Assembly (NCBI RefSeq): GCF_003852895.1
Contig: NZ_QUSW01000007.1
Coordinates: 231,411-295,410, forward strand
Reading direction: 5' to 3'
Length of the DNA stretch: 64,000 bases
Source: Piscinibacter terrae
GTDB taxonomy: Bacteria > Pseudomonadota > Gammaproteobacteria > Burkholderiales > Burkholderiaceae_C
The position numbers were made by a program, and so were the translations under genes. The notes beneath the pieces are model-generated. The model did no database searches. It was given only the letters and a program-made list of their open reading frames with translations, and had not been told where the DNA came from. This document shows positions 8,765 to 26,894 of the stretch, piece by piece; positions within the stretch are counted from its first letter, which is position 1; every line of letters starts with the position of its first letter.

Positions 8765-8775
8765 GGACTTATTTT

Positions 8776-8917: not shown

Positions 8918-9787
8918 ATGAAGCGCAAGATCCAGCTCCTCATCATCGATCCGCAGAACGACTTCTGCGATCTGCCGGAAGCCTACCGCCCCGCAGACCC
9001 GGTGACTGGTGCGAAGGTCGCCCCCGCGCTGCCCGTGGCCGGTGCACATGCCGACATGCAGCGCACCGCCGAGCTGATCCGCCAAGGCGGCGCCGGCCTC
9101 ACCGACATCGCCATCACGCTCGACTCCCACCACCGCTTCGACATTGCGCACCCCACGTTCTGGAAGACGGGGCAGGGTGCCGCGGTCACGCCCTTCACGC
9201 AGATCACTGCCGCGCAGGTCCGCAGCGGCGAGTATCTGCCGCGTGATCCATCCGCCTTGCCGCGCACGCTGAGCTACCTGGATGCGCTGGAAGCCCGCGG
9301 CCGCTACACCCTGATGGTGTGGCCCGTTCACTGCGAGATCGGTTCCTGGGGCCACAACGTCCATGCCGATGTGCGTGCCGCCTACAACGCCTGGGAAGAA
9401 CGGCAACTGGGCGTGGTGCAGAAGGTCAACAAGGGCTCCAACCCCTGGACCGAGCACTACAGTGCCCTGCTGGCCGAAGTGCCCGATGCCGAGGACCCCG
9501 ACACGCAGCTGAACCAGGCGCTCATCGACCAGCTCGACCAGGCCGACACGCTGCTCATCACCGGTGAAGCCAGCAGCCATTGCGTGAAGGCCACCACCGA
9601 ACACATCGTGCAGAACCTGCCGGGCGGCCGGCTCGAGCGCATCGTGCTGCTCACCGACTGCATGAGCCCGGTGGGGGGCTTCGAGGCCCAGCACGCGGCC
9701 TTCCTGGCCGACATGCGCGGCAAGGGCGTGCAACTGGCCACCACGGCCGACGTGCTGCCTTCGCTGATTGCAAACGCCACCCGCTGA
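8918..9787 (+). CDS. pncA: isochorismatase-family cysteine hydrolase, probable nicotinamidase (PncA-like, unusually long at 289 aa)
   Basis: N-terminal [11 protein letters not shown] motif (catalytic Asp), conserved Lys and Cys ([11 protein letters not shown]) of the cysteine-hydrolase triad; first gene of NrtR-linked NAD salvage operon. Confidence 0.6.
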
Positions 9788-9806
9788 ACAACGAACCACA
9801 GACACC

Positions 9807-10994: not shown

Positions 10995-11004
10995 GGGCAT
11001 TGCC

Positions 11005-12705: not shown

Positions 12706-12715
12706 GGAGTCGAGC

Positions 12716-13783
12716 GTGAACACCAGCGTGAGCACCCATGACGTGGCCGTCACCATCGGCCGCTTCCAGCCCTTCCACAACGGCCACCTCGCGGTGCTGC
12801 GGCAGGCGCTGGCGGCGGCGCCCGCCTGCATCGTGGTGATCGGGTCGGCCCACCAGGCCCGCACGCCGAAGAACCCGTTCAGCTGGGAAGAGCGGGTCGA
12901 GATGATCCGGCTGGCGTTGCCGGAGCCGGATCGTGCCCGCGTGTCGTTCATTCCCGTGCGCGACTACTACGATGAATCGCGATGGTTGTCGGTGGTCCGG
13001 CGCAGCGTCGAAAGCCTGCTGGCCGAGCGCGGCATGCCCACCGCGCGTGTCGCGCTGGTGGGGCACCTGAAGGATCCGACCAGCGAATACCTTCGTGGAT
13101 TTGCGGGCTGGCATTTCAAGAACATCGACCGCGTGTCGTCCTTCGACGCGACGGCTGTTCGAGATGCCTACTTCGGCCATGCCGCCGGCGAACTCGATGC
13201 GAGCCTGGCGGCGCTGGTGAGCCAGGCACCGCCCAGCACGGTCGCCTTCCTGCGCGCGTGGGCCGAGCTGCCCTTCTTCGACGAACTGGTCCGAGAATGG
13301 GAGATGCTCAGGCGCTACAAGCAGTCGTGGGACGCAGCGCCTTATCCACCGGTGTTCGTGACGGTGGATGCCATCGTCAAGTGCAACCAGCACGTGCTGC
13401 TGATCCGGCGCGGACAGGCGCCTGGAAAAGGCTTGTTCGCGGCGCCGGGAGGCTTCATCGAGCAGCGTGAGACGACCTACCAATCCGCCTTGCGTGAGCT
13501 GGAAGAAGAGACGCACCTCAAGTTGCTGGACACCGCCATGCGCCATGCCTTGAAGGCCGCGGTGGTGTTCGACCATCCAGACCGCAGCCAGCGTGGCCGC
13601 ACCATCACCCATGCGCATTTCTTCGACCTGGGCGAGCGCGAGTTCCCCGAGGTCAGGGCGGATGACGATGCCGCGGCGGTGGAGTGGGTGCCGATCGAAC
13701 GGCTGGTCGAGATGGAGGACCGCTTCCTGGACGATCACTTCCACATGCTGGACCACTTCCTGGGCTTGACGCAGGAAGCCTGA
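12716..13783 (+). CDS. nadM: bifunctional NMN adenylyltransferase / ADP-ribose pyrophosphatase (NadM-Nudix type)
   Basis: N-terminal (H/T)xGH nucleotidyltransferase motif IGRFQPFHNGH; C-terminal Nudix box (GGFIEQRETTYQSALRELEEETHL). Confidence 0.8.
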   Translation: MNTSVSTHDVAVTIGRFQPFHNGHLAVLRQALAAAPACIVVIGSAHQARTPKNPFSWEERVEMIRLALPEPDRARVSFIPVRDYYDESRWLSVVRRSVESLLAERGMPTARVALVGHLKDPTSEYLRGFAGWHFKNIDRVSSFDATAVRDAYFGHAAGELDASLAALVSQAPPSTVAFLRAWAELPFFDELVREWEMLRRYKQSWDAAPYPPVFVTVDAIVKCNQHVLLIRRGQAPGKGLFAAPGGFIEQRETTYQSALRELEEETHLKLLDTAMRHALKAAVVFDHPDRSQRGRTITHAHFFDLGEREFPEVRADDDAAAVEWVPIERLVEMEDRFLDDHFHMLDHFLGLTQEA

Positions 13784-13787
13784 GCCT

Positions 13788-14384
13788 TCAAGCGGTCGGG
13801 TAGACCGCTTCCGTGGGCGTTTGCAATTCCCGGTTGTCGTCTTGCGCATGCTCGCGTTGCGCAGCCACGAAACCGGTCATGTCGATGACCTCCAGCAGAT
13901 CGTCATGGGCCATGCGCCGCAGCATGCTGCCGCGCAGGCCCAGCTGGATGGCGCGACGACTCTGCCGCGCGCCGCTGGGTGAGTGGTCCGGATCCCACTG
14001 CAGGCGAACCTCGGAGCCTTCCACCGCGGCTTGCCACGCTTCGCGGCTTGGATGCACGGACGGGTCGTATGCGGACTCGACGGCCTGTGCCAGCAGTTCG
14101 TCAAAGAACGGCCGCTTCAGGCGCAACGCGAGGATCATCTCCTGGCCTTCCTTGGTGCCCCATCCACAGCGGTACATCATCCACAGGAAATTGGGCTTGA
14201 TCCAGCTCATCCGCTGGAAGCTGAAGTCCGGCCCACCGAAGCGGCCATGCTCGATGGCATGGCGTGCGATGGACGGCCGGTAGGCCTGGTAGACGATCAC
14301 CGAGGTGTCGTCGAATTGGGCAAGGATGTGCCGGCCTTCCGATGGCCAGCGATGCTGTTGTTGGAGATGGTTGCTGAAATTCAT
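13788..14384 (-). CDS. DUF4291-family protein (uncharacterised; last gene of KptA/NADAR operon)
   Basis: 198-aa ORF; ATGA start/stop overlap with upstream NADAR gene (14381-14384). Confidence 0.55.
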   Translation of the reverse strand: MNFSNHLQQQHRWPSEGRHILAQFDDTSVIVYQAYRPSIARHAIEHGRFGGPDFSFQRMSWIKPNFLWMMYRCGWGTKEGQEMILALRLKRPFFDELLAQAVESAYDPSVHPSREAWQAAVEGSEVRLQWDPDHSPSGARQSRRAIQLGLRGSMLRRMAHDDLLEVIDMTGFVAAQREHAQDDNRELQTPTEAVYPTA

Positions 14385-14962
14385 TGTCGTTTCTGTTGTT
14401 CTTGTTCAATCAGGCGTTCTCGAACCTCCATGAGCGCGAAGCCCAGCAGGTTCAAGCCTTTCCACAGCAGCGGGTTCTCCGCGTGAGGCTCATCCGCCGC
14501 CGTGCCGATGCCCCAGACCTTGTCGACCGGGCTGGCTTCGACGATGACGCGGTCGCCGGTCGATTTCAGGAACTCGCCCATGGCCGCGTTCTGGGAGAAC
14601 TTGGCCAAGTTGCCCGCGACGACCAGATCGAACCGGGCGGCTTTCCATTGGACGTCGTCGAATCCCTGGACGGTACGGCCCAGCTTCTTGGCCTCATTCG
14701 GACTTGCCGCCGCGACGATTCGTTCGTGGGCCTGCGCATCGCCGAACAAGCGGGCCTTGCCAGCCATCATGAAGTGCTCGGCCGTGGTGTAGCGGGTTCC
14801 CTCCACGACGAAGGGCGCCTCGTACCACTGGCTGAACACGCTCTTGCCGATCTCCCCGCCAGGGAGCGGCCGATGACCCCAGAAGAAGAGGTACTTGGGC
14901 CGATGGCCGTGCTCGACGGCGGCGATGAGTTGTTCGATGCTGCGCACTTGCTGGCTGTTCAT
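14381..14962 (-). CDS. NADAR-domain protein (YbiA-like, DUF1768; predicted NAD/ADP-ribose-related N-glycosidase)
   Basis: Start MNSQQVRS at 14962; NADAR-like motifs (FFWGHRP..GEIGKSVFSQWYEAPF..YTTAEHFMMAGKARLF...KVWGIG). Confidence 0.7.
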   Translation of the reverse strand: MNSQQVRSIEQLIAAVEHGHRPKYLFFWGHRPLPGGEIGKSVFSQWYEAPFVVEGTRYTTAEHFMMAGKARLFGDAQAHERIVAAASPNEAKKLGRTVQGFDDVQWKAARFDLVVAGNLAKFSQNAAMGEFLKSTGDRVIVEASPVDKVWGIGTAADEPHAENPLLWKGLNLLGFALMEVRERLIEQEQQKRQ

Positions 14963-14978
14963 TCTTTTCCTCTCCTGC

Positions 14979-15539
14979 TCACACCAGCGACTGATGCCGG
15001 CTGAGATACCGCACCGGCACATGATCTGTGAGCCACACGTTGTTGTCCGATCGGTAGAAGCGATGGCCATCGGCACGCATCGCGGCAGCGTCGATGGCCA
15101 GGATGACCGGGACGCCGTAGCGCTGCCCGACCGAACGGGCGGTGCCGATGTCGGCGGTCATGTGCACGTGATGACGCTGCCGCTTGTCCAGCCCCGTGCG
15201 CATCACCGAGTCGATGAATCTCGATGCCGTGCCGTGGTACAGCACCGCCGGAGGTTCGAGTTCTTCCAGCCCGAGTTCCACGTCGATCGAGTGTCCCTGG
15301 TTGGCGCGAATGCGTGTTCCGTCCTCGCTGAAACTGAATCGTTGCTTGTCATTGCCAGCCACCACTTCGCGCAGCAGATCCAGGCTCACCGGGCGTCCGG
15401 CGATGGCGAGCTTTTGCAGCAGCTCGCCCACGTCTGTCCATCCTGCATCGTCCAGCGACAGGCCGATCTTTTCCGGTTGGTGCCTCAGCACCAGGCTGAG
15501 GAACTTGCTGATCGACACGATGTTGTGCTTGTTGGTCAT
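14979..15539 (-). CDS. kptA: RNA 2'-phosphotransferase (Tpt1/KptA family, NAD-dependent)
   Basis: Start MTNKHNIV at 15539; KptA motifs ([39 protein letters not shown]); long upstream in-frame extension of the track ORF rejected. Confidence 0.8.
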
Positions 15540-15577
15540 GGTTGTTTTCCTTGTTGTGTTGTTCTCGTTCGGTGGCC

Positions 15578-16510
15578 TCACACCACCAGATGTCCTTTGC
15601 TCGCCGCCACCGTCACCACCGCTTCCATGCCTGCGGTGAAGGCCAGGTAGTCGGCTTCCATGCCGTCTGAAAAGATCACGCCGTTCTCCGGCATGCGTGA
15701 GCGCAGTTTGAGCGATTGTTCGTGCGTCACGCCGCCGAACACGAGCTCCGCCTGTGAACCCCTGCTCGGAAACGGCTCGCGCACGGCGAAGGTCAGCTGG
15801 TCGCTGTCCCAGGCCTGCGGCCGATACGCCAGCGGCGCGGATGTGCCGACCGCACGCGCAATGCCGGACGCACCCGTCACCACGCTCTTGAGCCATGCGG
15901 TCGATCCCAGCCCGGTGGACACGATGATCCCGGACGAGGACTGCGATTCGCGACGGCCTCCGAGTTCGATGTCGTACAGCGCCGAGGTGTGCGTGCGCGG
16001 GCCGATGAACAGGTCATTGACCGCGCGCAGGCATTGCCCGTCCGACAGGATCGCCTGGGCCATCGTCACCGCCTTGTGGGCGCGGCGACCGCCCGCCACT
16101 TCGCGCAGGATGGGACCGAGGTCGCCGGCCTCGAAGGGCAGCAGCACGCCATCCCACCGCGCAGGCTCCGGGTTCACGCCCACCAGGGGTTGCCCCTCCA
16201 GGTACTTCATCGTGTTGGCCACCAGGCCGTCCTGGCCCAGGGCCACCACGATGTCGTCCGGCGCGAACACGAAGTTCGGCAGGTAGCCGCGGTCGATGAC
16301 CTGGTAGCGGCCCCAGGCCTGCAATGTCTGCATCGCGACGCGCAGCTGCCTGGCATACACCTCATCCTCCTTCACGTAGTCGGAGAAGTCGGCGCCCAAG
16401 TGCTCGACATAGAAGCGCGATTGCTCCAGCGTGTGATAGCGCGCTACCAGCTCCTGCAGCCTCGTGCGGCGCGTCACCAGCACGACCTTGCAGTCATTCC
16501 TTGCGTTCAC
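15578..16510 (-). CDS. ATP-NAD kinase-family protein (NadK-like fold, atypical)
   Basis: 310 aa; GGDG-like motif ([12 protein letters not shown]) and NadK C-terminal-like [15 protein letters not shown]; embedded in SPFH/KptA/NADAR operon. Confidence 0.55.
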
Positions 16511-17549
16511 GGTGTGCCTTTCCTCGTTCGTCTTGCGTGCTGCTGCCCATCAACGACTGCAGCAGGTCCGGTGACAGGTTGAGCTGCCCGATGCGTTCGG
16601 CCCGTTCGGCGATGCCGCCAAACGCCTGCGCAATGAGCTGTCCCGGCTGCATGCCCGCTGCAGTCAACGCCTGCACGACGCGCGGATCGGCGGCTTCGAG
16701 GGCGCGCATCACCGCGCTCACCCGGTAGGCCTCGGCATCGGCCGACGTCCGCTGGTTCTGCGCCTGGCCATCGACGAAGGCCTTGCGCTGGTCTTCCAGC
16801 GCGACGTCCGCCGCCATCTGCTCCGTGCGCAGCGTGTTCTCCTTGCGCAGCATCGCCGCCTTGGCCTCCATCTGCGTCTCGCGGATCTGCCGCTTCTTCT
16901 GCTCCACCGCGATGTCGGTGTCCAGCTCGTTCTGGCGGATGGATCGCTCCTTTTCCACCGCCGACATGCGGCGCGCATACACGGCATCGTCCGCGGCCTG
17001 CAGGTTGGATTCGCGGGCTTCGGCCTCCAGTGCGCGCGCAATGTCAGGCGTGGGCTTCACGGCCATCACCGACACGCCCAGGATTTCCAGGCCCAGCGCC
17101 GCGATCTCCGGCTGGTTGCCCAGCTCCTTCTGCGCCGCCCGGGCAATGAGCGCCGACGAACGCAGCGCCTGCTTGAGCTCCAGCGACTGCACCGCCTGCT
17201 GAACGATGACCTCGACCTGCATCGCCACCCGGTCGCCCAGGCGCTTGGGGTCTTCGGACACGTAGCCGCGTCCATCCTTGTTCAGCGAGAAGTCCATCAT
17301 CGCCGAGGTGCGGCGCGGATCGCTGATGCGGTAGGTGACCTGGCCTTGCACCGTCACCGTCTGGAAGTCGGCGGTGACGAGCTGGAGGATGAACGGCCGG
17401 TCCTGGCTGGCCACCGGCACGGCCACCAGCGTGGTGGTGGGTGCGTAGTAGAAGAAGGACTCGCCCGCCCCTTCGCGCAGCAGCTTGCCGCCCTTGAACT
17501 GCATGAGGTGGACGGTGGGTTGGGCCTTGATGAACTGGATGCCGAACAT
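16494..17549 (-). CDS. SPFH/band-7 (stomatin/prohibitin/flotillin-like) domain protein with C-terminal coiled-coil region
   Basis: Start MFGIQFIKAQP at 17549; SPFH core plus long Glu/Ala/Arg-rich helical tail; first gene of operon; divergent from nrtR paralog. Confidence 0.75.
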   Translation of the reverse strand: MFGIQFIKAQPTVHLMQFKGGKLLREGAGESFFYYAPTTTLVAVPVASQDRPFILQLVTADFQTVTVQGQVTYRISDPRRTSAMMDFSLNKDGRGYVSEDPKRLGDRVAMQVEVIVQQAVQSLELKQALRSSALIARAAQKELGNQPEIAALGLEILGVSVMAVKPTPDIARALEAEARESNLQAADDAVYARRMSAVEKERSIRQNELDTDIAVEQKKRQIRETQMEAKAAMLRKENTLRTEQMAADVALEDQRKAFVDGQAQNQRTSADAEAYRVSAVMRALEAADPRVVQALTAAGMQPGQLIAQAFGGIAERAERIGQLNLSPDLLQSLMGSSTQDERGKAHRERKE

Positions 17550-17641
17550 GGCAGACTCCTTGTTTGGTTGTTCTGTACAACTTGTTAATGGTTGCACAAT
17601 ACAACTTAAAATCCGATGCGTCAAGCAAGGAGCCCCAACCC
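17550..17641. promoter_or_regulatory. divergent control region between SPFH operon and second nrtR paralog with ACAACTT direct repeats
   Basis: ACAACTT at 17577-17583 and 17601-17607; CAACttgttaatgGTTG dyad; same ACAACT core as the nrtR1-pncA operators. Confidence 0.35.
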
Positions 17642-18373
17642 ATGGTCAGCAAGGCCCCCGGCCGCATGCCGCCGTTTCCTCTGCCGTTCACCACGGTGGA
17701 CGTGGTCATCTTCACCGTGCTCGACGATGCGCTGCAGGTGCTGCTGGTGCAGCGGCCGGACACGCCCAAGGAGCCGCACCCCGGCAAATGGGCGCTGCCG
17801 GGCGGCTTCGTGGACATCGACCGCGACGCGGACCTCATCGCCTGTGCGCGCCGCAAGCTGCGCGAGAAGACGGCGGTGGAGAGCCCCTACCTCGAACAGC
17901 TCGGCAGCTGGGGAAGCCGGTCGCGCGATCCGCGCGGCTGGTCGGCCACGCACGTGTACTTCGCGCTGGTGGCGGCGGACCATCTGGTGATCGAGAAGGG
18001 GGCCAATGCGGCGGACGTCGCATGGTTCAAGGTCGACGAGATGCTCAAGCGCCCCAGGCTGGCCTTCGACCATGCGCAGATCCTGCAGGCGGCCGCCGAG
18101 CGGCTGCGCAGCAAGGTGGAGTACACCTCGCTGCCGGCGTTCCTGCTGAGCGAGCCGTTCACCTTGCCGCAGTTGCAGCGAACCTATGAAATCGTGCTGG
18201 GCCGCCCGGTGGACAAGAGCGGCTTTCGGACCCGCATGCTGGCGGCGGACTTCCTGGTCGAGGATGGCTACGCCGACGGCAGCTCCAAGCGGCCGGCCAT
18301 GGGCTACCGGCTGCGCGACCGGCAGGAGCCCGTCACCTTCCCCCGCACCTTCAGCCCACGCGGGGCGGAGTAG
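17642..18373 (+). CDS. second NrtR-family (Nudix-wHTH) regulator paralog
   Basis: Start MVSKAPG at 17642; Nudix region (LLVQRPDTPKEPHPGKWALPGGFVD..REKTAV) and wHTH (FTLPQLQRTYEIVLGRPVDKSGFRTRM) colinear with the nrtR gene at 8072-8764. Confidence 0.7.
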   Translation: MVSKAPGRMPPFPLPFTTVDVVIFTVLDDALQVLLVQRPDTPKEPHPGKWALPGGFVDIDRDADLIACARRKLREKTAVESPYLEQLGSWGSRSRDPRGWSATHVYFALVAADHLVIEKGANAADVAWFKVDEMLKRPRLAFDHAQILQAAAERLRSKVEYTSLPAFLLSEPFTLPQLQRTYEIVLGRPVDKSGFRTRMLAADFLVEDGYADGSSKRPAMGYRLRDRQEPVTFPRTFSPRGAE

Positions 18374-18376
18374 GCC

Positions 18377-21238
18377 TCAGCGCAGTCCGATGCTGGTCTG
18401 CGCGCTGGTGGCAACGTCCAGCGCCCACAGCCGCCCCTGCCGGTCGAAGACGATGAGGTGGCTCTCGCTCAACCGCGCCTGCGGCAAGGATGGGGCGGGC
18501 CAGTCGATGCGCGCGCAAACACGCCCGTTGCCCATGGCGATGGCGGCCCAGTGCGTGGTGGTCTCGTCGCCGATGCCCGCCAGCAGCCACGAGCCCGCCA
18601 CGACCACGCGCAGCGGATCCCCTTCGGCCACCATCTGCGGCCAGGCGATGTTCTGCTTGCGGCCGTTGAGCATGAAGGCGAGCGTCTGCGCACCATCGGC
18701 ATCGACCTGGATCCACGCCTCGATCACGCCGCCATTCGGCGCGAGCACCTGTGTCGAGCCCGCCGAGATCGGCGAGGGCACCAGTTCGTCGCGCACGAAC
18801 AGGCGCCGCTGCGGCAGCGAGTAGCGCCACAGCGAATACTGCGCGGTCGGCAGCGCCAGGCAGACCTGCTCGACGCGCGAGTTCACCGACAGGTCGCACA
18901 CCTTGCCGGGCAGGTCGCCCACCTGCCAGAGCACTTCGTTCAGTGAACGCTGCGTGTCCAGCACGCGCAGCCGGTTGCCGCTCGCGACGGTCCAGGCGAT
19001 GCCGTCGAATTCGCGGGCGAAGTGATGCAGCTCGGCCATGCCCAGGTCGGTGACCTGCCGGTTGGCGAGGTCGAGCCGGCTGACGCGGCACACGAGGTCG
19101 CGCCGCGCCACGGCCAGCGCCATCTGCCGGCTGGGCGCGATGACGAGCTGGTCCGCGGGCACGGCGAAGCGCGACTGCACCTTGCCATGCCGGTTCACGA
19201 TGACGGCGCCTGTCTCGCCCAGCGCGAGCAGGAACTGGCCATCGTCGAGCGCCACCGCATCCAGCGGCGCGAGCTGGCCAGCGTCGGGCAGCCGGCCCTG
19301 AACGGGCGCGGCCGACTGCGAAAGCTCCTGCCGCTGGTGGGCCGGCAGCGCTGTGTTCTCCAGGTCCGCACTCAGCCAGGGGTCGTTGGCCAGGGACACG
19401 ACCCGCTGTAGATCGTTGCGGCTCAGTCCGCCCAGACCCGCGGCCTGGTCTGCCACCAGGCCAGGGGCTATCACGCGAGCGATGCCCGAGGTGCGTGCTT
19501 CCGCCTGCTTGAGTTCGAGCAAGGCCGCAGCAATGGCCTCGCGCTCGGCATGCAGTTCGGGGTCGTCGCGCAGCTCGTGCAGACGATCGGCAGATTGCGT
19601 CATGGTGTCGGGCAGTAGCACGGCCCGCTTGACCAGCGCGCGGGCGCCGAGGCGGCCGCCGGCGGCCTGCGCGTTCTCCAGCCATTGGATGGCGAGCGTC
19701 CGCTGCTCCTTCACCGGCCAGATGGCGTCGATCGCACCGAGCCAGTCTCCACGTTGTGCAAGGGCGTGCGCCCATTCCTGGCGCAGGCGGCGTGCCGGGT
19801 CGGGCCACTTGGGTTCCATCTGCAGCACGGCTGTGGCGAAGGCGTTGTCCCGCCGCGCCACGGCCAGCGCCTTGCGCCAGTCGTCAGCCAGGCAGAAGAG
19901 GCGAACGATGACGGCGGCCGGATGGTCCCATGCCAACGCCAGTTCGGCCGCCTGCTTGAAGCGGCCATGCTTCTCCAGGTAGTCCAGCGCTTCCTGCCGC
20001 GCATGCAGCAGCTCGGCCAGCACGAACACCGCTTCGTCGATGCGCCCCTCGCGGTCGAGCTTCTCGAAGCTGCGGCGGTAGAGCTGCCGCAGGTGGGACT
20101 CCAGATCCGATCCGAGGTTGATGCTGGTGTGGTAGGTCGGCCCCGAACTCAGGCCGAGGTCGCTGCGTGCGCCCGGCGTGCCGAAGGCCTGGCCGAGGGA
20201 CTGGTTGTCTCCACCGAGCGGAATGGCGTGGCGCAGGGCCTCGTCGAGCTGGCCCGACTCGAACAGATCGAGCATCTTGCGGACGTAGGCTGCCTGGCGC
20301 TGGCCCAGCAACCGGGCGATCTGGGAGGTGATCGCCAGCCGCGCGAGCCAGTCGCGCCACATCTGGCGAGGGTTGCGAGGGCGGTGCCGTGGCGGGATGG
20401 TGCCGGTGGGTGTGCCGGCAGGGCGTGCAGCGGCCACCGGCTGAGCCGGGGCGCCTGCCGATGTCCAACTCGTCGGGGCGCGTGAGCTCCTGGCCAGGAA
20501 GAAGCCAATGGCGAAGAGCACGATCGTCCACAGCGGCATGGCGTCGACACCGGTGCTGGAGACTCCGGCGATGACGGCAATGACGACGAGAACCCACAGC
20601 ACCAGCCGCAGGGCATGGCCTGGGCGGGAGCTTGACTGCTGAGATCGCGACGAGCCGGATATCCCGTCGGATTCCCGTGATTGCGCCATCGCCCGCAGGA
20701 ATTCCCGGTGCTCGTCGCTGGCTGGCGGGACCTTGCCGTCGAAGATGGCACGCAGGTCCTGCACTGGAACCGGCGTGACGAATACAGATGGCGGCAGAGC
20801 TTCGCGGCAGTCGAAGGTGTCGTGCAATGCGACGGACGCGGTGGCCAGCCACTCGGCCGGATCCAGAGGCTGCCCGTCGTCGAAGTGCATCGACAGGCAT
20901 TGCGCCCCGTGCACCACATGGAAGTCCGCCGCAGGCAAGGCCGCGAGCTCGGCGTCAGCCAGAGGTGCGGAGCACAGGGTGCGTCCCTGCCGGACGAGTG
21001 CCCAGCCTTCCAACGCATCGCACGACTGCTCGAACGGTTCGGCAAAGCGCAGCAGGTCGCCTTGCGCAAAGCGGTGGGCCGACGCACCGGGACGCCATGC
21101 GGCCAGCAGGCGCCGGGCCCGCTGCGTTTCGTCGAACCAGGAGACTGGGAACCACAGGGCGCAGACCTTCTGCTGCCCCTGCAACAGCGGCTGCCGAACC
21201 TCGGCGGGCCTCGTGAAGATGGGATCGTGTGGTGTCAT
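18377..21238 (-). CDS. 953-aa protein with central predicted transmembrane segment(s) and large C-terminal repeat region; candidate third component of a MoxR-vWA-beta-propeller (bpX-like) system
   Basis: Long uninterrupted ORF; ATGA overlap with upstream gene at 21235-21238; hydrophobic segments LRLVLWVLVVIAVIAGV and LWTIVLFAIGFFL; no similarity to housekeeping families recognised. Confidence 0.55.
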   Translation of the reverse strand: MTPHDPIFTRPAEVRQPLLQGQQKVCALWFPVSWFDETQRARRLLAAWRPGASAHRFAQGDLLRFAEPFEQSCDALEGWALVRQGRTLCSAPLADAELAALPAADFHVVHGAQCLSMHFDDGQPLDPAEWLATASVALHDTFDCREALPPSVFVTPVPVQDLRAIFDGKVPPASDEHREFLRAMAQSRESDGISGSSRSQQSSSRPGHALRLVLWVLVVIAVIAGVSSTGVDAMPLWTIVLFAIGFFLARSSRAPTSWTSAGAPAQPVAAARPAGTPTGTIPPRHRPRNPRQMWRDWLARLAITSQIARLLGQRQAAYVRKMLDLFESGQLDEALRHAIPLGGDNQSLGQAFGTPGARSDLGLSSGPTYHTSINLGSDLESHLRQLYRRSFEKLDREGRIDEAVFVLAELLHARQEALDYLEKHGRFKQAAELALAWDHPAAVIVRLFCLADDWRKALAVARRDNAFATAVLQMEPKWPDPARRLRQEWAHALAQRGDWLGAIDAIWPVKEQRTLAIQWLENAQAAGGRLGARALVKRAVLLPDTMTQSADRLHELRDDPELHAEREAIAAALLELKQAEARTSGIARVIAPGLVADQAAGLGGLSRNDLQRVVSLANDPWLSADLENTALPAHQRQELSQSAAPVQGRLPDAGQLAPLDAVALDDGQFLLALGETGAVIVNRHGKVQSRFAVPADQLVIAPSRQMALAVARRDLVCRVSRLDLANRQVTDLGMAELHHFAREFDGIAWTVASGNRLRVLDTQRSLNEVLWQVGDLPGKVCDLSVNSRVEQVCLALPTAQYSLWRYSLPQRRLFVRDELVPSPISAGSTQVLAPNGGVIEAWIQVDADGAQTLAFMLNGRKQNIAWPQMVAEGDPLRVVVAGSWLLAGIGDETTTHWAAIAMGNGRVCARIDWPAPSLPQARLSESHLIVFDRQGRLWALDVATSAQTSIGLR

Positions 21239-23085
21239 GCGTTGTCGCCCGTCTGCACATCGGCCTGCACCACGAGGCGGGCCTGCCGCCGCGAGATGTC
21301 GAAGACGTGCAGCTCACGGGTGCGGGTGGTCAGCGCCATGACGCCGCTGTTGGCGCAGACGGTCATCCGTTCGATGGGGGCGCCGGTGCTGTAGGTGAGC
21401 TCTGTTTCGCCCGAGGTCTGAAGCGAGATGTCTCGACCGTTGGCCGACTTCACCACCAGTGCGCAGCGCTGTGTCGGCGCGCTCTTGAAGAGCCCCGCCA
21501 CCGTGGCTCCGGCCGGCAGGCGGACTTGCCACGACAGGCTGGGAAGCTCCTCGCCTGCCTCGACATCGCTGACCAGCCAGCTTTCCTGCGAGTCCTCCAG
21601 CGCGCTTCGCACGGCGCAGGCACCCAGGCCGCTGCGCTGGTCGGTGCTGCCGACGAGGAAGACAGGCGCCGAGGCATCGAGGGCGTAGGGGATGCGGTGA
21701 TCCAGCTTTTCGCGCCCGTGGTCGGCGAGCGCCCGGATGGCGACGCTGTGCCCATCCGAGCAGGCGTAGACCACGCCGCGATCGCCGACGCGGGCCATGG
21801 CGAGCACGTTCTTGTCCATCAACATGGGACCGCGCGCGCGATGCTTCGAGTCGGCCATCCACAGCACCAGGTGCCCCGAAGCGTCCAGTACGTACAGGCG
21901 TTGCATGCCGGCGTTGCGAAGCCACACGCACGGCAGCAACCCAGCGCGACCCGGCGGTGCGTTGAACTCATCGGCGGAAGGGCGCGTCTGTATGCCGAGG
22001 CCCGACATCTGCCAGAACAGCAGGTGCGATGCCGGACTGGGATAGGCTTGCCGGGACATCACCATGCCCAGGGTCTTGCCCGCGAACGCAGCGGCCAGAG
22101 GCTCGGCGCGGACAGGTAACTGCTCCCGTCGAGGCGGCTTCGGGCCTTGCCTGCGGGACGACACGGTTTGGAAAACGAGCACGCCATGGCCATCCAGCGC
22201 CATGAGAGCCACCTTCGCGCCAGTGCTCGACAGGATCGGCGCAACGGTCAACGAGAAGCGCTCCGAACGCAAGCTGCGCACATCCGGTGGGACTTCCTTC
22301 TCGAAGCGGCCCTTGAGCAACTCCGGTGTGCGGCGCGGCGACGGCAGTGGCAGGTGGAGTCCACGTGCCATTGCGCCGGCAGACAGCTTCAATTCAAGGG
22401 ATTCGCCGTCCAGCGACCGCCGCAGCTGGACCGCATGGGAAGGCGGTGGTGTCGCACGCTGGATGGCCTCGGTGTCGTGCGCGACCAGCCAGCGCTCGCC
22501 GATGCCGTTGGCGTGCTGGTCCAACCAGCGCATCCATTCGTCCCAGTGTTCAGGCCGAACGCTGGCGAACGTGCGCGCGTTCAGCAATCGCTTGAGATCG
22601 GCCGCTGAAGCCGCTTCATGCCACTGGCCTGGCTGTTGCAGGCTGCCCCAGCGCATGACGCCGCCTGCCTCGACGGCACGGCGAGAGAGAAGAATCCATA
22701 GGGCCAGATGCGCCAGGCGCGGCGCACCGAGCTGCATGGGGCCGCAATCGAACAAGGCCACGATGAGGCTGTCGGCCTGGTGCGCTCGCGGCCGCGGCGC
22801 GAGAAAGAGGTGCTCGCCGCCTGCAGCGCGGCGCAGGAATTCATCGGGCAACTCCGACGCCAGCAGCCATTCACTGGACAACAGCCGCTCGTAGGAGCCA
22901 CGCCGGCGCAGGTCGTCCACGCCGTCCGGTTCGGCCGCATCGCCCGGGCGCCGGCCGCGGAACCGGCCCAGCCACGGATGCATCCGCAGCAGAAGCTCGC
23001 CGACCTGGGCGGCGAGGTCGGCATCGAACCAGCTCAGCCAAGGGCGCCAGGATTCCAGCGCGTCGGGCAAGCGAAGGCTGCTCAT
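21235..23085 (-). CDS. 616-aa protein with N-terminal vWA-like domain (degenerate MIDAS) and C-terminal beta-propeller-like repeats
   Basis: Start MSSLRLPD at 23085 overlaps upstream stop (ATGA); segment LIVALFDCGPMQLG resembles vWA beta-strand/MIDAS region with DxSxS degraded; repeated hydrophobic-D/S-G-H motifs (LYVLDASGHLVLW, VVYACSDGHSVAIR, LHVFDISRRQ). Confidence 0.5.
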   Translation of the reverse strand: MSSLRLPDALESWRPWLSWFDADLAAQVGELLLRMHPWLGRFRGRRPGDAAEPDGVDDLRRRGSYERLLSSEWLLASELPDEFLRRAAGGEHLFLAPRPRAHQADSLIVALFDCGPMQLGAPRLAHLALWILLSRRAVEAGGVMRWGSLQQPGQWHEAASAADLKRLLNARTFASVRPEHWDEWMRWLDQHANGIGERWLVAHDTEAIQRATPPPSHAVQLRRSLDGESLELKLSAGAMARGLHLPLPSPRRTPELLKGRFEKEVPPDVRSLRSERFSLTVAPILSSTGAKVALMALDGHGVLVFQTVSSRRQGPKPPRREQLPVRAEPLAAAFAGKTLGMVMSRQAYPSPASHLLFWQMSGLGIQTRPSADEFNAPPGRAGLLPCVWLRNAGMQRLYVLDASGHLVLWMADSKHRARGPMLMDKNVLAMARVGDRGVVYACSDGHSVAIRALADHGREKLDHRIPYALDASAPVFLVGSTDQRSGLGACAVRSALEDSQESWLVSDVEAGEELPSLSWQVRLPAGATVAGLFKSAPTQRCALVVKSANGRDISLQTSGETELTYSTGAPIERMTVCANSGVMALTTRTRELHVFDISRRQARLVVQADVQTGDNA

Positions 23086-23573
23086 GCGGCAGCCCCGGGC
23101 TGGTCGTCCCACAGTGCTGCGATTCGTGCGAGAAGGGCTGCGGAGACGGGCAATTGGCGATCCATCGGCACCAGGACCGATGGATCAGGCCAGAGCAGCA
23201 GCGGCTTGCGCTGGTGGCGCCGGTCAAGTGCGATCGCCAGCAGATCGCAGGCAACGTCCGGGCGCCGCAAGGTGGGCAGCCACAGGTTGGGCGCTTCGGG
23301 GCAGGGCGCGGCGTAGGCTGCGCCATCGATCCAGGGCAACGCGGCTGTCGCGCCGCTGACGACCATCACGTCGCGGCTGGCCGTGGCGTGCAGGCGTGCC
23401 TGCTCTTCGGCACTCATGAGTTGCAGGCGTGCATGCAGCCGGCGCGCCGCGGGGCCGAAGGCCACGACCGCGCGTGCGGGCGCGGGCTCAGGCTGGCCGG
23501 CCCAGCGCCAGTCGAATCGTCCAGCGAGGCTCACGCGGCAACCGCAATCAGCGCAGCCAGCTTCACGCGCCAT
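23082..23573 (-). CDS. small hypothetical protein (163 aa as drawn; start uncertain) between MoxR ATPase and vWA-like gene
   Basis: ORF in operon context; overlaps AAA gene 3' end by 43 nt if the 23573 start is used; internal alternative start MSAEEQ at 23417. Confidence 0.35.
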   Translation of the reverse strand: MAREAGCADCGCRVSLAGRFDWRWAGQPEPAPARAVVAFGPAARRLHARLQLMSAEEQARLHATASRDVMVVSGATAALPWIDGAAYAAPCPEAPNLWLPTLRRPDVACDLLAIALDRRHQRKPLLLWPDPSVLVPMDRQLPVSAALLARIAALWDDQPGAAA

Positions 23574-24652
23574 TCGGCCAGATCGGCCGGCAGCGTGTCG
23601 GCATCGAAGTTCGCGTCGATCTCACGCAGCAAGGCTTCGACTTCCAGGCGGCGTCCTTCGACGGAACCGGCCAGCAGACCTTGGGCCGATTCCTTGAGAC
23701 GTGCGGCCCTGGACAGCGGCTGCAAGGTGGCTTGCTCCACGGCGCTGAGCAGGTTCGGATGCGCCGCATCGGCGAACAGTTCGCGCAGGACCTCGCGTGC
23801 GCTGTGCTGGGCCTCCTGCGTCGGCAGCACATACAGCAGCGGCCAGAGGTCTGCCTGCGTGGCTTGCACGCGACCCGCCAGCACGGCGGCCGCCGCGATG
23901 AGCCGCTGCGCCTTCACGATGCGGCGGTCCGAGAGCTGGATGCCGGCCTGGCGCAATTGACGGATCGCGCTGGCCAGTGCCGGGCGGGCGATGTCCAGGT
24001 TCGCGAGCTTCACCGCGTGACACAGCACGTCCAGGTGCGCCATGCCGGCCTGCGGCTCGACGCGCTGCTGGTCCGATTGCCAGCCGCCAGCCAGCATCGC
24101 TTCGAGTTGGTGATCGGGCACGGCCTCGATGAACAGATGCAGCAGGAAGCGGTCGCCAAAGGCGGCGAGTGCTTCGTCTTCCGGCAAGCCGTTGGCAGCA
24201 CCCACGCACACGCGCAGCGGGCACTGGATTTGTGTGTGGCCGCGGCGAAAGCGCCGCTCGTTCAGCACACCCAGGAGCGTGTTCAGGATGGCCGTGGAAC
24301 CGAGGAACACCTCGTCGAGAAACGCCACCTCGGCCTCCGGCAGCATGCCGGTGACGTCGGTCTCGACGGTGCCCTCGCGCAGCTTCTTCAGGTCCACCGG
24401 ACCGAAGAGCTCCGACGGTTCGGTGAAACGTCCGAGCAGGTATTCGAAGTAGCGCCCACCCATGGCTTGCGCGACGCGGCGAACCACCGCGCTCTTGGCG
24501 GTGCCAGGCGGCCCGATCACCAGCAGGTGCTCCTGGGCGACAGCGGCCAGCACGATCAGCTCGGCCAGTTGATCGCGCCCGACCAGGCCGGCCGTGGCTG
24601 CGCGGATGCCCTGCCGGACTTGGCTGGCGGAGTCTTGGAGAGAGAGGGTCAT
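23531..24652 (-). CDS. MoxR-like AAA+ ATPase
   Basis: 373 aa; Walker A LLVIGPPGTAKS, Walker B AFLDEVF, sensor/arginine finger region; MoxR/RavA-type single AAA+ module with C-terminal helical domain. Confidence 0.85.
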   Translation of the reverse strand: MTLSLQDSASQVRQGIRAATAGLVGRDQLAELIVLAAVAQEHLLVIGPPGTAKSAVVRRVAQAMGGRYFEYLLGRFTEPSELFGPVDLKKLREGTVETDVTGMLPEAEVAFLDEVFLGSTAILNTLLGVLNERRFRRGHTQIQCPLRVCVGAANGLPEDEALAAFGDRFLLHLFIEAVPDHQLEAMLAGGWQSDQQRVEPQAGMAHLDVLCHAVKLANLDIARPALASAIRQLRQAGIQLSDRRIVKAQRLIAAAAVLAGRVQATQADLWPLLYVLPTQEAQHSAREVLRELFADAAHPNLLSAVEQATLQPLSRAARLKESAQGLLAGSVEGRRLEVEALLREIDANFDADTLPADLAEWRVKLAALIAVAA

Positions 24653-24713
24653 GATGTGCGTCGGGTTCGAAAGAGACAGTCTGCCTGAGCAGGCCGTCAG
24701 TGGGATGCAGGTG

Positions 24714-25082
24714 TCAGGCGCCGACCGTGAGGTCCTTCAGCAAGCTGCGCAATTTCTTGCGGCCGTCGCTGTTCGTCGAGCGCCAGGCCTTGAGTGCCAG
24801 CGCGAGAAACTGCTGTTCGGCCTGGTTCAGGCCCGCGGCTTCGCGCTCTTCATCAAGCCAGCCCACCGGCTTCTTGCAGTGCTGCTCGATCTGCCGGGCG
24901 AGCTTGTCGCCGATGGGTCGGGATGACTTGATCTGGCTCCACATGCTGGGCGAAATCTCCAGGCTCGTGGCGAAGGTTTGCTCCAGCCCCTTGGGAGCGG
25001 CGCCATTGGCCACGGCCGACTCGGCATAGGCCTGGAAGAGCGCCAGCACGTTGCGGCGCCGATGGATGGTGATGTTGCTCAC
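24714..25082 (-). CDS. XRE/lambda-repressor-like HTH DNA-binding protein (122 aa), probable regulator of the downstream MoxR operon
   Basis: HTH segment TFATSLEISPSMWSQIKSSRPIGDKLARQIE; 60-nt gap to AAA gene, same strand. Confidence 0.55.
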   Translation of the reverse strand: MSNITIHRRRNVLALFQAYAESAVANGAAPKGLEQTFATSLEISPSMWSQIKSSRPIGDKLARQIEQHCKKPVGWLDEEREAAGLNQAEQQFLALALKAWRSTNSDGRKKLRSLLKDLTVGA

Positions 25083-25445
25083 GCTGAGTGTGTGTTGCGT
25101 ACGACAAGAATTTCGAGCCGCGATTGTCGGGGGGGTTGACGATGGCGTAAAGACTCTTTACAGTCCGCTCCCGTCGCTGCATGAAGCGACATTCTTCAAC
25201 GATTTCAAGGACTCGACGTGACCCGATTCGCCGCCAAACAAAACCTTCGACCCTGCCAGGGCCGTGGTGCGTTTGTGCGCGTCGTCGCGACGTTCCAGCT
25301 AGGAGCGGCCGATGGTTGCTCGTATCGCAACAGCAAGTCCATGCATCTGGCCGCTGCCTTGGAGTGCCCGCAATGGCACATCAAGAGTGACGAGGATCCG
25401 ATGCATCCGGGAGAGGGAGGCGCATAGCCGCACCCCTTCAAGCTC

Positions 25446-25485
25446 TGTACGCAGAGGCCCGGATTCCGCGAAGGATCCGGGCCTT
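25446..25485 (+). terminator. orphan rho-independent terminator (ggcccggattccgcgaaggatccgggcc-TTTTTGTTTT)
   Basis: Perfect 9-bp stem plus T-run on plus strand about 150 nt upstream of the tRNA array; no confident CDS upstream (25083-25445). Confidence 0.45.
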
Positions 25486-25632
25486 TTTGTTTTCAACCTC
25501 CAACCCGCGTCGTGGCCGGCAGCCGCGACGCAGCGATCCACCGGGTCGCACACCGGCAACGGTGCATTGTTCTTTCAAAACTTGCCGCAAGACGACGCCA
25601 GTACTGGCTGGCCATCAGCGTCTTGCACACAT

Positions 25633-25708
25633 GCGGATGTAGCTCAGCAGGCAGAGCGGGACCACGCCATGGTTCAGGCCACGAGTTCGATTCTCGTCAT
25701 CCGCTCCA
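25633..25708 (+). tRNA. tRNA-Gly(GCC)-like, non-canonical C33
   Basis: GCGGATG/CATCCGC acceptor, D arm TAGCTCAGCAGGCAGAGC, anticodon loop ACGCCAT (C at position 33), T arm ACGAG-TTCGATT-CTCGT, CCA encoded. Confidence 0.6.
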
Positions 25709-25869
25709 CGATTCACTTCGGGTGTGTCCTTGCACTCCGTGGCCGCACTTGCATGGTGTTGGCGGCGCGGGATGTGCGCGGTCGCAGGCCTGAGGCTCCG
25801 TGCAGCGAGACACCACGTCCGACGGGACGCTCGCGCTTGGGCACAGCCGAAGTGGATTGCCATGAATTG

Positions 25870-25944
25870 GTCGCGTTCGTCTAACGGTCAGGACGCTGGG
25901 CTTTCAATCCGGCAATGCGGGTTCGACTCCCGCACGCGATACCA
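25870..25944 (+). tRNA. tRNA-Glu(TTC)
   Basis: Acceptor GTCGCGT/ACGCGAT (G1-U72), TTCGTCTAACGGTCAGGAC Glu-type D arm, anticodon loop CTTTCAA, T arm GCGGG-TTCGACT-CCCGC, CCA. Confidence 0.65.
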
Positions 25945-26036
25945 GCAAACAGAAGCCATCGTCGAGCTCACGCTTCGATGGCGGAAATCGGCCGCAACGA
26001 TTGGGCGGCACCGGAACCCGTCACCGGAAAATATTT

Positions 26037-26112
26037 GCTTCGTTAACTCAGTGGTCAGAGTGCCGGCCTGTCTAGTCGGAAGCCGCGGGTTCGAATCCCG
26101 CACGAGGCGCCA
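26037..26112 (+). tRNA. tRNA-Asp(GTC)
   Basis: Anticodon stem-loop CCGGC-CTGTCTA-GTCGG (U37 unusual), T arm GCGGG-TTCGAAT-CCCGC, 3' ACGAGGCGCCA. Confidence 0.65.
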
Positions 26113-26120
26113 GTCAATTT

Positions 26121-26196
26121 GCCGCGGTAGCTCAATGGGTAGAGCGCCGGCCTGAAGAGCCGGGCGTAGGAGGTTCGAACCCTTCCCGCGGCACCA
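26121..26196 (+). tRNA. tRNA-Phe(GAA)
   Basis: GCCGCGG acceptor, anticodon stem-loop CCGGC-CTGAAGA-GCCGG, T arm GGAGG-TTCGAAC-CCTTC, CCA. Confidence 0.8.
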
Positions 26197-26200
26197 GTTT

Positions 26201-26277
26201 GTCTCGTTAGCTCAATGGATGAGAGCGCCGGTCTACGAAGCCGGAGGTTGCATGTTCGAGTCATGCACGAGGCGCCA
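26201..26277 (+). tRNA. tRNA-Arg(ACG)
   Basis: Anticodon stem-loop CCGGT-CTACGAA-GCCGG, T arm GCATG-TTCGAGT-CATGC, 3' end identical to the Asp gene (ACGAGGCGCCA). Confidence 0.7.
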
Positions 26278-26285
26278 ATTCTCCT

Positions 26286-26372
26286 GGGTGTGTGGCAGAG
26301 AGGCCGATTGCAGCTGCCTGTAAAGCAGCCTCCCGAAAGGACACGGTGGTTCGAATCCATCCGCACCCACCA
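26286..26372 (+). tRNA. tRNA-Tyr(GTA), class II (long variable arm)
   Basis: Acceptor GGGTGTG/CGCACCC, anticodon GCTGC-CTGTAAA-GCAGC, variable arm TCC-CGAAA-GGA, T arm GGTGG-TTCGAAT-CCATC, ACCA. Confidence 0.75.
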
Positions 26373-26378
26373 GACAAA

Positions 26379-26454
26379 TCCGGGCTAGCTCAATTGGCAG
26401 AGCAGCGGCCTCCAAAGCCGAAGGTTCGCGGTTCGACCCCGTGGTCCGGAGCCA
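26379..26454 (+). tRNA. tRNA-Trp(CCA)
   Basis: Anticodon loop CTCCAAA, D arm TAGCTCAATTGGCAGAGC, T arm CGCGG-TTCGACC-CCGTG, GCCA. Confidence 0.75.
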
Positions 26455-26461
26455 GATTCTT

Positions 26462-26547
26462 CTCGATGTAGCCAAGTGGTCGAAGGCGACTGATTGCAAA
26501 TCAGTTGGCGCAAGCCCACGTCCGTTCGAATCGGACCGTCGAGTCCA
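26462..26547 (+). tRNA. class II (long variable arm, 3-bp D stem) tRNA with Cys anticodon GCA; allo-tRNA / SelC-like non-canonical tRNA
   Basis: Acceptor CTCGATG/CGTCGAG, D arm GCC-AAGTGGTCGAA-GGC, anticodon ACTGA-TTGCAAA-TCAGT, 14-nt variable arm GGC-GCAA-GCC, T arm GTCCG-TTCGAAT-CGGAC, TCCA. Confidence 0.55.
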
Positions 26548-26554
26548 GCTTTGT

Positions 26555-26630
26555 TTCCCGATAGCTCAATGGGTAGAGCGCCCGGCTGTTAACCGGGAGG
26601 TTCTTGGTTCGAGACCAAGTCGGGGAGCCA
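26555..26630 (+). tRNA. tRNA-Asn(GTT)
   Basis: Anticodon CCCGG-CTGTTAA-CCGGG, T arm CTTGG-TTCGAGA-CCAAG, GCCA. Confidence 0.8.
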
Positions 26631-26634
26631 GTTT

Positions 26635-26709
26635 GCCCGTGTAGCTCAGTGGTAGAGCACTCGCTTGATAAGCGAGAGGTCGTTGGTTCGAGCCCAACCG
26701 CGAGTACCA
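26635..26709 (+). tRNA. tRNA-Ile(GAT) with one acceptor-stem mismatch (C3-A70)
   Basis: D arm TAGCTCAGTGGTAGAGC, anticodon CTCGC-TTGATAA-GCGAG, T arm GTTGG-TTCGAGC-CCAAC, ACCA. Confidence 0.65.
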
Positions 26710-26718
26710 ATGGTCAGT

Positions 26719-26794
26719 CTCCGTGTAGCGCAGCTGGGAGCGCACGTGCCTTGGGAGCACGGGGTCGCAGGTTCGAACCCTGCCGCGGAGACCA
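26719..26794 (+). tRNA. tRNA-Pro(GGG)
   Basis: Acceptor CTCCGTG/CGCGGAG (C1-G72), anticodon CGTGC-CTTGGGA-GCACG, T arm GCAGG-TTCGAAC-CCTGC, ACCA. Confidence 0.75.
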
Positions 26795-26820
26795 ACTTCT
26801 TTCGATGCATGTGTTTGGGT

Positions 26821-26894
26821 GTGGCCGTAGCTCAATGGCAGAGCCATGGATTGTGGATCCGTTGATGTCGGTTCGACTCCGACCGGTCACCCCC
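26821..26894 (+). tRNA. tRNA-His(GTG) lacking encoded G-1 and CCA
   Basis: Acceptor GTGGCCG/CGGTCAC, anticodon ATGGA-TTGTGGA-TCCGT, T arm GTCGG-TTCGACT-CCGAC, discriminator C followed by CCCA rather than CCA; -1 position is T. Confidence 0.6.

Follow-up and report, generated by a model that had tools for sequence, protein, structure and literature searches.

The β-propeller (bp) branch of the MoxR-vWA ternary systems was predicted computationally by Kaur, Burroughs, Iyer and Aravind (Kaur et al., eLife 2020, PMC7159879). In this description the ATPase possesses a GxxxTAKS P-loop and is accompanied by a divergent vWA protein, which is devoid of the metal ion-dependent adhesion site (MIDAS) aspartates and ends in a C-terminal propeller. 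A third protein is composed of an N-terminal globular domain, a membrane segment, a tetratricopeptide repeat (TPR) region and a propeller, and extra small genes are linked to the system. The Pfam models PF20030, PF19921 and PF19922 were built for this 'MoxR-vWA-beta-propeller ternary system'. The bp branch is a large family and occurs in plant-associated Pseudomonas, Ralstonia and Xanthomonas; no other branch of the MoxR-vWA ternary systems is as poorly understood. No experimental work on it was found in the literature, and none had been known to the initial annotation of the DNA described here. The only experimentally supported case of comparable logic that was found is the Esr pathway of oral Actinobacteria, in which MoxR-vWA together with a divergent β-propeller sensor mediates threat sensing (bioRxiv 2026 preprint, PMC13622651). 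Peptide-binding chaperones including vWA were also predicted in the ARG-centred, NrtR/WYL-regulated systems, for which a role against ADP-ribosylation has been predicted (Iyer et al., Viruses 2022, PMC9503650, section 3.8). The present locus lies in a 64,000-nt stretch of Piscinibacter terrae DNA (contig NZ_QUSW01000007.1, positions 231,411 to 295,410), referred to as the window, and all positions given are counted within it. It is almost certainly a four-gene, translationally coupled cassette encoding bpMoxR, bpX5, a degenerate-vWA/β-propeller protein and a bpX6/transmembrane (TM)-hairpin/TPR/β-propeller protein. Its membership in the bp-containing ternary systems, in the form carrying bpX5 and bpX6, is held with very high confidence. 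The kind was thus known beforehand as a computational prediction; the locus is a new member and its architecture is not new.

Five open reading frames (ORFs) were seen on the minus strand between 18377 and 25082, exactly where the initial annotation had placed them. In the order of the cassette, followed by the adjoining helix-turn-helix (HTH) gene, they are:

23531..24652, minus strand: bpMoxR, a single-module MoxR-clade AAA+ ATPase of 373 aa
23082..23534, minus strand: bpX5, a small protein of 150 aa from the GTG at 23534 (163 aa from the alternative ATG at 23573)
21235..23085, minus strand: the 616-aa 'vWA component', with an N-terminal region, an alpha/beta domain, a beta-hairpin and a seven-bladed β-propeller
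18377..21238, minus strand: the 953-aa third component, with a bpX6 domain, a TM hairpin, a helical solenoid and a β-propeller
24714..25082, minus strand: a 122-aa HTH gene, phage-repressor-like, which adjoins the cassette and is not a conserved component of it

All three junctions of the cassette are 4-nt start/stop overlaps (GTGA, ATGA and ATGA). The two ATGA overlaps are situated between bpX5 and the 616-aa gene (23085-23082) and between the 616-aa and 953-aa genes (21238-21235), as had been read before. The first junction had also been read as ATGA and had to be corrected: here the stop of the MoxR gene overlaps the GTG start of bpX5 at 23534, and the upstream ATG at 23573 would put the bpX5 ORF 43 nt into the MoxR gene. 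As the homologues measure 144-149 aa and the GTGA overlap with the MoxR stop is present, the 150-aa form of bpX5 is the most likely one on the sequence. Similarly, the first methionine of the 953-aa protein and the residues following it are kept across an alignment of 52 homologues, which favors the ATGA-coupled start over the 935-aa database annotation. Apart from this start codon, the product is the same as the 'bpX6 domain' protein of P. terrae in the database. Two of the four proteins were labelled already in the database annotation; the 616-aa product is 100% identical to an entry of Piscinibacter (Albitalea) terrae named "hypothetical protein".

Profile searches, which had been proposed along with the prediction of a bpX-type system, gave strong matches to all three diagnostic Pfam models. 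bpMoxR matched PF20030 (1.2e-90, 302 bits, model positions 2-196 of 205), bpX5 matched PF19921 over the whole model (5e-53) and the N-terminus of the 953-aa protein matched the bpX6 model PF19922 (1.6e-64). Together with an anatomy that fits the published description, these matches support the prediction. The cassette agrees with the system of Kaur et al. in the three Pfam models, the P-loop, a protein in the vWA position which lacks most MIDAS residues and ends in a propeller, the make-up of the third component (globular N-terminal domain, TM segment, TPR and propeller), the small linked gene and the proteobacterial host. It differs in possessing a complete seven-bladed propeller in the 616-aa protein, according to the AlphaFold2 (AF2) model, where about four blades were described in the paper, in a bpX6 domain which is not hypervariable within the subfamily, and in neighbourhoods of NAD/ADP-ribose, KptA and Rtc genes which the paper does not report.

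The ATPase was rightly recognised beforehand as a MoxR-type single-module AAA+ protein with GPPGTAKS, and its catalytic module is intact and RavA-like as judged by its motifs. Its Walker A reads GPPGTAKS, which is of the GxxxTAKS P-loop type, and its Walker B reads DEVF; the protein also has an AAA lid and ends in a helical tail of about 100 aa. Further Pfam matches are to AAA_5 (2.3e-26) and AAA_lid_8 (1.8e-7). The closest solved relative is RavA; residues 20-270 of bpMoxR align on RavA 19-278 (E 4.8e-39), and the Walker A, Walker B, sensor and arginine motifs all fall in register. The likeness to RavA-ViaA extends to the coupling of the ATPase gene to a downstream partner and to a link with the membrane. 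In contrast, the score of bpMoxR stays below the cut-off of the NCBIfam RavA equivalog (161.7 bits against 681), and the alignment ends at RavA residue 278 of 498, so that the triple helix and the LARA domain are not present in the 373-aa protein. The 616-aa partner has no detectable similarity to ViaA, with hhalign probabilities of 0.1-0.2% against E. coli ViaA and a ViaA family alignment, although this template alignment was shallow (Neff 1.7). The ViaA homologues carry PF13519 and PF05762 (VWA_2 and VWA_CoxE), and neither is found in the 616-aa protein or its relatives. A further difference is that the cassette encodes two propeller proteins as well as bpX5 and a TPR protein anchored by TM helices. 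The initial annotation had seen no likeness to housekeeping MoxR partners; this stands for the partner proteins and has to be modified for the ATPase. One RavA-ViaA fusion-like entry (P0382) carries a precomputed match to PF20030, showing that the bpMoxR model is not fully specific with regard to RavA; score, coverage and the synteny with bpX5 and bpX6 should decide the assignment. bpX5 was found at essentially every related locus. No relative of it was found in the PDB, and no known fold could be assigned.

The AF2 model of the 616-aa protein, built with 52 homologues, has a mean predicted local distance difference test score (pLDDT) of 83.7. Residues 1-97 form a conserved, helical and partly low-confidence region, followed by an alpha/beta domain at about 98-225 (107-223 in the model), a beta-hairpin and a C-terminal β-propeller at about 263-608, in which 28 strands (271-608) are arranged in seven sets of four. 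The alpha/beta domain contains the invariant motif FDxGPxQ (F112-D113-x-G115-P116-x-Q118), which reads FDCGPMQ here and follows the first beta-strand. The predicted order of the elements, bA-a1-bB-bC-a2-a3-bD-a4-bE, is that of the vWA fold as far as bE. The invariant Asp113 follows the first strand at the place of the DxSxS motif, and only this first MIDAS aspartate is retained. In the model, the element order and Asp113 are consistent with a degenerate and C-terminally truncated vWA fold. Pfam VWA matched neither the protein nor any of 101 homologues at E values up to 1-5; of these homologues 52 were close and 49 distant, down to 25% identity. Profile searches of PDB sequences with the 616-aa protein gave no match. 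Fold searches with the model returned only propellers, the signal of which swamped the rest of the protein. A domain-only profile search of 1.84 billion representatives, aimed at distant vWA relatives, gave 150 proteins with the same architecture. The alpha/beta-domain profile matched 1083 cluster representatives (50% identity), nearly all of about 600 aa and of the same layout. The FDCGPMQ motif and the C-terminal propeller that had been noticed earlier were both found, the propeller by AF2 and fold search. No sequence test confirmed the vWA fold of the 616-aa protein. Within the subfamily, identity is 68% in the N-terminal region, 53% in the alpha/beta domain and 34% in the propeller, as would be expected if one end of the protein were kept constant for an interaction and the other were a sensor that diversifies. 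A stretch of an actinobacterial Embleya replicon (NZ_CP108785.1, 3148418-3148816) aligns with residues 4-137 at 42% identity, covering the conserved N-terminal region and the beginning of the alpha/beta domain, and this match hints at distant relatives beyond Proteobacteria.

The 953-aa protein was modelled with a similar pLDDT of 84.0. It is composed of the bpX6 domain (14-183, with the beta-rich part at 22-130 in the model), two hydrophobic helices at 209-228 and 235-253, a TPR-like helical solenoid (291-626) and a C-terminal β-propeller of roughly seven blades at about 645-953, for which Foldseek also returned propeller matches. By hydropathy the two helices make a TM hairpin, with arginine flanking both ends, and the AF2 model supports this topology. 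Absence of a signal peptide and the hairpin type of anchor lead us to infer that both soluble parts should face the cytoplasm. Earlier this protein had been described as a soluble N-region, one or two TM helices and a repeat-rich C-terminus, all of which now have a structural counterpart; structure prediction, another of the checks proposed at that time, gave propellers in the 616-aa and the 953-aa models alike. Identity within the subfamily is 54% in the bpX6 domain, 20% in the TM hairpin, 63% in the solenoid and 46% in the propeller.

The order and strand of the cassette genes are identical in about 80 species-level loci, along with several metagenome contigs, and the colinearity sought in the proposed neighbourhood comparison is thereby established. 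The same layout was seen in the called genes of loci L001-L005 and L086-L089. The hosts belong to Pseudomonas, Variovorax, Ralstonia, Xanthomonadales, Oxalobacteraceae, Chromobacteriaceae and Rhodocyclales. The spread is patchy, as a pattern scan confirmed relatives in 138 stretches of a collection of 185,579 species. The four genes of P. syringae are clade-specific and belong to a plastic part of the genome (PMC9677677). When the flanking ORFs were clustered de novo, no further gene conserved across lineages emerged beyond the NAD cluster described below; the remaining flank clusters were LysR, two-component systems, ABC transporters and TonB receptors, reflecting synteny within genera. The window as a whole was also considered as a phage and this was rejected, given its bacterial housekeeping flanks and the lack of any phage match. 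Repeat and Rfam scans of the region gave nothing beyond chance GC-rich matches.

In P. terrae the cassette sits between two modules, one concerned with nicotinamide adenine dinucleotide (NAD) and ADP-ribose, downstream of the 953-aa gene, and one with tRNA and Rtc genes, beyond the HTH gene. The downstream module encodes NrtR2, an SPFH protein, an NAD-kinase-like protein, KptA/Tpt1, NADAR, NadM-Nudix, NadE, PncB, a PncA-like protein, NrtR1 and a paralogue of EF-G. Its NAD salvage/ADP-ribose cluster occupies 8072-17624 and has two NrtR paralogues. The NAD-kinase-like protein (310 aa) has only a weak NCBIfam match and its gene is overlapped by the SPFH gene by 17 nt. At the edge of the cluster, at 5401-7581, is a second copy of an EF-G-like GTPase of 726 aa, the Ideonella orthologue of which (L003/L006, 6279-8306, 72% identity) lies directly upstream of bpMoxR in the same direction. 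The regulator closest to the cassette is:

17564..18373, plus strand: NrtR2, Nudix plus winged helix (Pfam NrtR_WHD 1.4e-18, NUDIX 4.4e-18)

NrtR2 and the 953-aa gene converge, their stop codons separated by 3 bp, and the same convergence is seen in L001, from the closest relative. NrtR2 is context which marks the start of the NAD/ADP-ribose cluster, not a component of the cassette. On the other side, beyond the tRNA array, an RtcR-controlled RNA-repair operon extends over 29100-36793. Its parts are:

29100-30716, minus strand: RtcR
31431-32570: SPFH protein of the RNA-repair operon
32597-34192: Rsr/Ro60, in the RNA-repair operon
34557-34689: YrlA, a Y-RNA-like RNA (Rfam, 81 bits)
34711-35934: RtcB, in the RNA-repair operon
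35966-36793: RlaP, in the RNA-repair operon

NAD/ADP-ribose genes adjoin the cassette also in L001/L002, Ideonella, Viridibacterium, a Rhodocyclaceae metagenome-assembled genome, Andreprevotia and two Janthinobacterium species. Viridibacterium and the Rhodocyclaceae genome have a co-directional array, PncB-NADAR-NadE-NadM-DUF4291-PnuC-NadR-ARH-Macro-KptA-cassette, and the two Janthinobacterium species have NadM and NadE only. ARH and Macro are the adjoining genes in the Rhodocyclales and Ideonella loci, and NrtR, NADAR and KptA are those found here. In two Ralstonia species, Rtc operons were found about 2-7 kb from the cassette. The NAD-linked loci fall at four separate positions of the MoxR tree and their gene orders differ. 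For a cassette placed at random, the chance of such a location (within 10 kb of a cluster of about 10 kb in a 5-Mb genome) is far below 1% by a rough estimate and not a formal test, making four or more independent co-locations unlikely by chance. The link is mentioned neither by Kaur et al. (PMC7159879) nor by Iyer et al. (PMC9503650). The ARG-centred systems resemble this setting in having a Nudix-HTH regulator of NrtR type, nearby NADAR, Macro or ARH and a predicted chaperone. They differ in that no ARG gene is found beside the cassette in the window, the linkage concerns about 10% of the cassettes, and the paper of Iyer et al. names neither MoxR nor the bp cassette. As read from gene order, the NAD/KptA/Rtc context is a new, modest lead.

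Two perfect GTTG-N7-CAAC palindromes, the only perfect copies in the 64 kb, are situated at 17567-17605 in the divergent gap between NrtR2 and the SPFH gene; their starts are 24 bp apart. With unchanged spacing the pair recurs in L001 (15569-15607) and in the Ideonella locus L006 (3818-3856), in each case in the orthologous divergent gap beside NrtR and ahead of a NADAR/KptA operon. The tandem pair is likely to be the NrtR operator, for which it is put forward as a candidate. A site with one mismatch upstream of the HTH gene was also considered for NrtR control of the cassette and was discarded, the number of such sites being within chance (27 found, 25 expected).

On this basis a mechanism can be proposed. 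The 953-aa protein would act as an inner-membrane scaffold through its helical hairpin, holding the bpX6 domain and the TPR-propeller arm in the cytoplasm. The 616-aa protein may dock on it either propeller to propeller or by insertion of its conserved N-terminal peptide into the TPR solenoid, and its fast-diverging propeller would offer the sensing surface for a ligand derived from stress or from an invader. A hexamer of the RavA-like MoxR, possibly recruited through bpX5, might then remodel the vWA-like domain using ATP. This would constitute an ATP-dependent threshold switch altering the state of the membrane-anchored partner, with oligomerisation or an effect of the bpX6/TM module on the membrane as conceivable outputs. 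The setting among NrtR-governed NAD, ADP-ribose, KptA and RNA-repair genes, shared with several other betaproteobacteria, suggests, by neighbourhood, that the cassette may be deployed in the same situation as these genes, namely under attack on NAD or RNA. The mechanism as a whole is put a little short of an even chance. A conflict or stress-response role of the cassette, taken separately, comes nearly to an even chance; the patchy distribution, the plastic region in P. syringae and the fast divergence of the propeller speak for it indirectly, and Esr provides an experimental precedent. The best overall explanation, which combines the ternary-system identity with a membrane-anchored sensor or switch and the context of NAD/RNA attack, is considered somewhat probable. 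If true, the tie to NAD, ADP-ribose and RNA damage would be the first concrete physiological context for the enigmatic bp family, and the context narrows the worthwhile challenges to NADases, ADP-ribosyltransferase toxins, ribotoxins and phage. The locus supplies confident structural models, a gene set corrected from five to four and a testable NAD/ADP-ribose/RNA-repair setting.

Several results weigh against this explanation. None of the sequence tests could verify the vWA fold of the 616-aa protein, on which the logic of a MoxR-vWA chaperone rests. The bpX6 domain, at the identity given above, lacks hypervariability within the subfamily. A cytoplasmic position is predicted for both propellers, whereas the sensors of Esr are at the surface. 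The Esr pathway combines MoxR, vWA and a sequence-divergent β-propeller sensor, but its surface filamentous propellers, Ser/Thr kinase/phosphatase, FHA relay and Esx secretion output have no counterpart here. About 90% of the cassettes have no NAD/ADP-ribose/RNA-repair neighbours. The neighbor-joining tree of MoxR tracks taxonomy, indicating mostly vertical inheritance in place of the rampant transfer that many defence systems show. A phage collection of 50,697 records gave no nucleotide or protein match to the cassette, and a plasmid collection of 72,556 records gave only the marginal N-terminal match in Embleya. In PADLOC-DB v2 the ATPase had only sub-threshold generic AAA+ matches (E 7e-4 or weaker) and the other proteins had none, and no effector domain could be recognised in the cassette proteins. 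In Pseudomonas and Variovorax the flanks consist of ordinary metabolic, transport and regulatory genes and are not defence islands.

Much of this evidence also speaks for a rival reading, a RavA-ViaA-like chaperone with a housekeeping or stress function, which would assemble, insert or quality-control a membrane-associated complex, with the 953-aa protein as membrane scaffold and with no conflict role. The chromosomal location, the congruent tree, the negative phage, PADLOC and effector results, the marginal plasmid signal and the ordinary neighbours in Pseudomonas and Variovorax are on its side, as is the fact that RavA is the nearest characterised relative of the ATPase. However, a housekeeping function fits poorly with the very patchy distribution (138 stretches) and with the clade-specific cassette of P. 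syringae in its plastic region. No candidate client gene is conserved beside the cassette across lineages, divergence in the 616-aa protein is much faster in the propeller than elsewhere, and there is neither a LARA domain nor a ViaA-like partner. This alternative is the strongest of the rivals and is nevertheless judged unlikely.

The NAD context admits a more specific reading, in which the cassette would be the chaperone arm of an NrtR-controlled response to ADP-ribosylation, to depletion of NAD or to damage of RNA. Macromolecules that are ADP-ribosylated or otherwise damaged would be recognised by the propellers, and MoxR would remodel them or present them to NADAR, Macro, ARH and KptA. In a variant, the propellers would sense such targets or the enzymes causing the damage, and the MoxR switch would act with NrtR-controlled NAD salvage, NADAR/Macro/ARH, KptA and Rtc genes. 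Adjacency to NrtR, NADAR, KptA, NadM, NadE and PncB genes at the four tree positions in varied gene orders speaks for the chaperone-arm reading. In three lineages KptA is the gene immediately upstream, in the same direction, and in Ideonella the cassette is downstream of, and co-directional with, a KptA-NADAR operon carrying NrtR-operator-like palindromes. Also, vWA and other chaperones were predicted by Iyer et al. 2022 (PMC9503650) in NrtR/WYL-regulated systems of ADP-ribose removal. Yet the roughly nine-tenths of cassettes without such neighbours within 10 kb include all those of Pseudomonas, Variovorax and Xanthomonadales, and none of the loci examined has an operator-like palindrome immediately upstream of bpMoxR. 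In the window the cassette is convergent with NrtR2 and stays outside its operon. Clustering of unrelated conflict and repair modules in shared islands could give the same pattern. The first form is regarded as quite improbable, and the variant as improbable to the same degree. The explanation by a membrane-anchored sensor or switch, deployed in a situation of NAD or RNA attack, is kept as the preferred one.

The remaining alternative concerns the gene set. The initial annotation had taken the five genes as one unit, and this did not hold up. The 122-aa HTH protein has no Pfam or NCBIfam match and matches a transcriptional repressor PHROG (3.9e-9). Among about 85 loci, a homologue was found only in L001/L002, the closest relative (87% identity), where it is again beside a tRNA array in the same gene order. 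That the locus abuts a tRNA array had been noted before, and the array was found to comprise 18 tRNA genes at 25633-28408 on the plus strand, with each isoacceptor once and a lower GC content (about 0.60). Two further genes go with it:

27743-28318: phage-type RNA ligase, embedded in the tRNA array (phrog_14301, 8e-78)
28460-29041: HNH endonuclease, with the tRNA array

The array of L001 (6353-7319) is shorter and keeps the order Gly-Glu-Asp-Phe-Arg-Trp-Asn, with an integrase gene just past it. As the homologue is limited to L001/L002, always borders the array and matches a phage-repressor PHROG, the HTH gene is assigned by sequence and synteny to the tRNA-array module, not to the cassette. 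The HTH protein as a dedicated regulator in a five-gene unit, for which the common strand, the 61 bp from the HTH stop to the bpMoxR start and the adjacency repeated in L001/L002 could be cited, is very improbable and was rejected, for no homologue stands beside the cassette in about 80 other loci, the PHROG match is of phage-repressor type, the gene borders the array in both genomes having it, the integrase of L001 follows just past the array, and an unusually conserved 550-bp region ties the gene to the array module.

This 550-bp gap, which separates the HTH gene from the first tRNA (25083-25632), has about 85-90% nucleotide identity to L001, compared with 56% amino-acid identity for the 616-aa coding region. 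It contains a promoter-like site at 25136-25164 and a strong terminator at 25453-25496, both on the plus strand, and its RNA fold has a z-score of -1.97. A candidate ORF of 69 aa (25218-25427, plus strand) keeps its frame across two 3-nt indels. The gap may hold a small RNA or a small protein gene. Within the RNA-repair side of the window, a tRNA-like Rfam match (34.8 bits) was seen at 31054-31121, where ARAGORN made no call.

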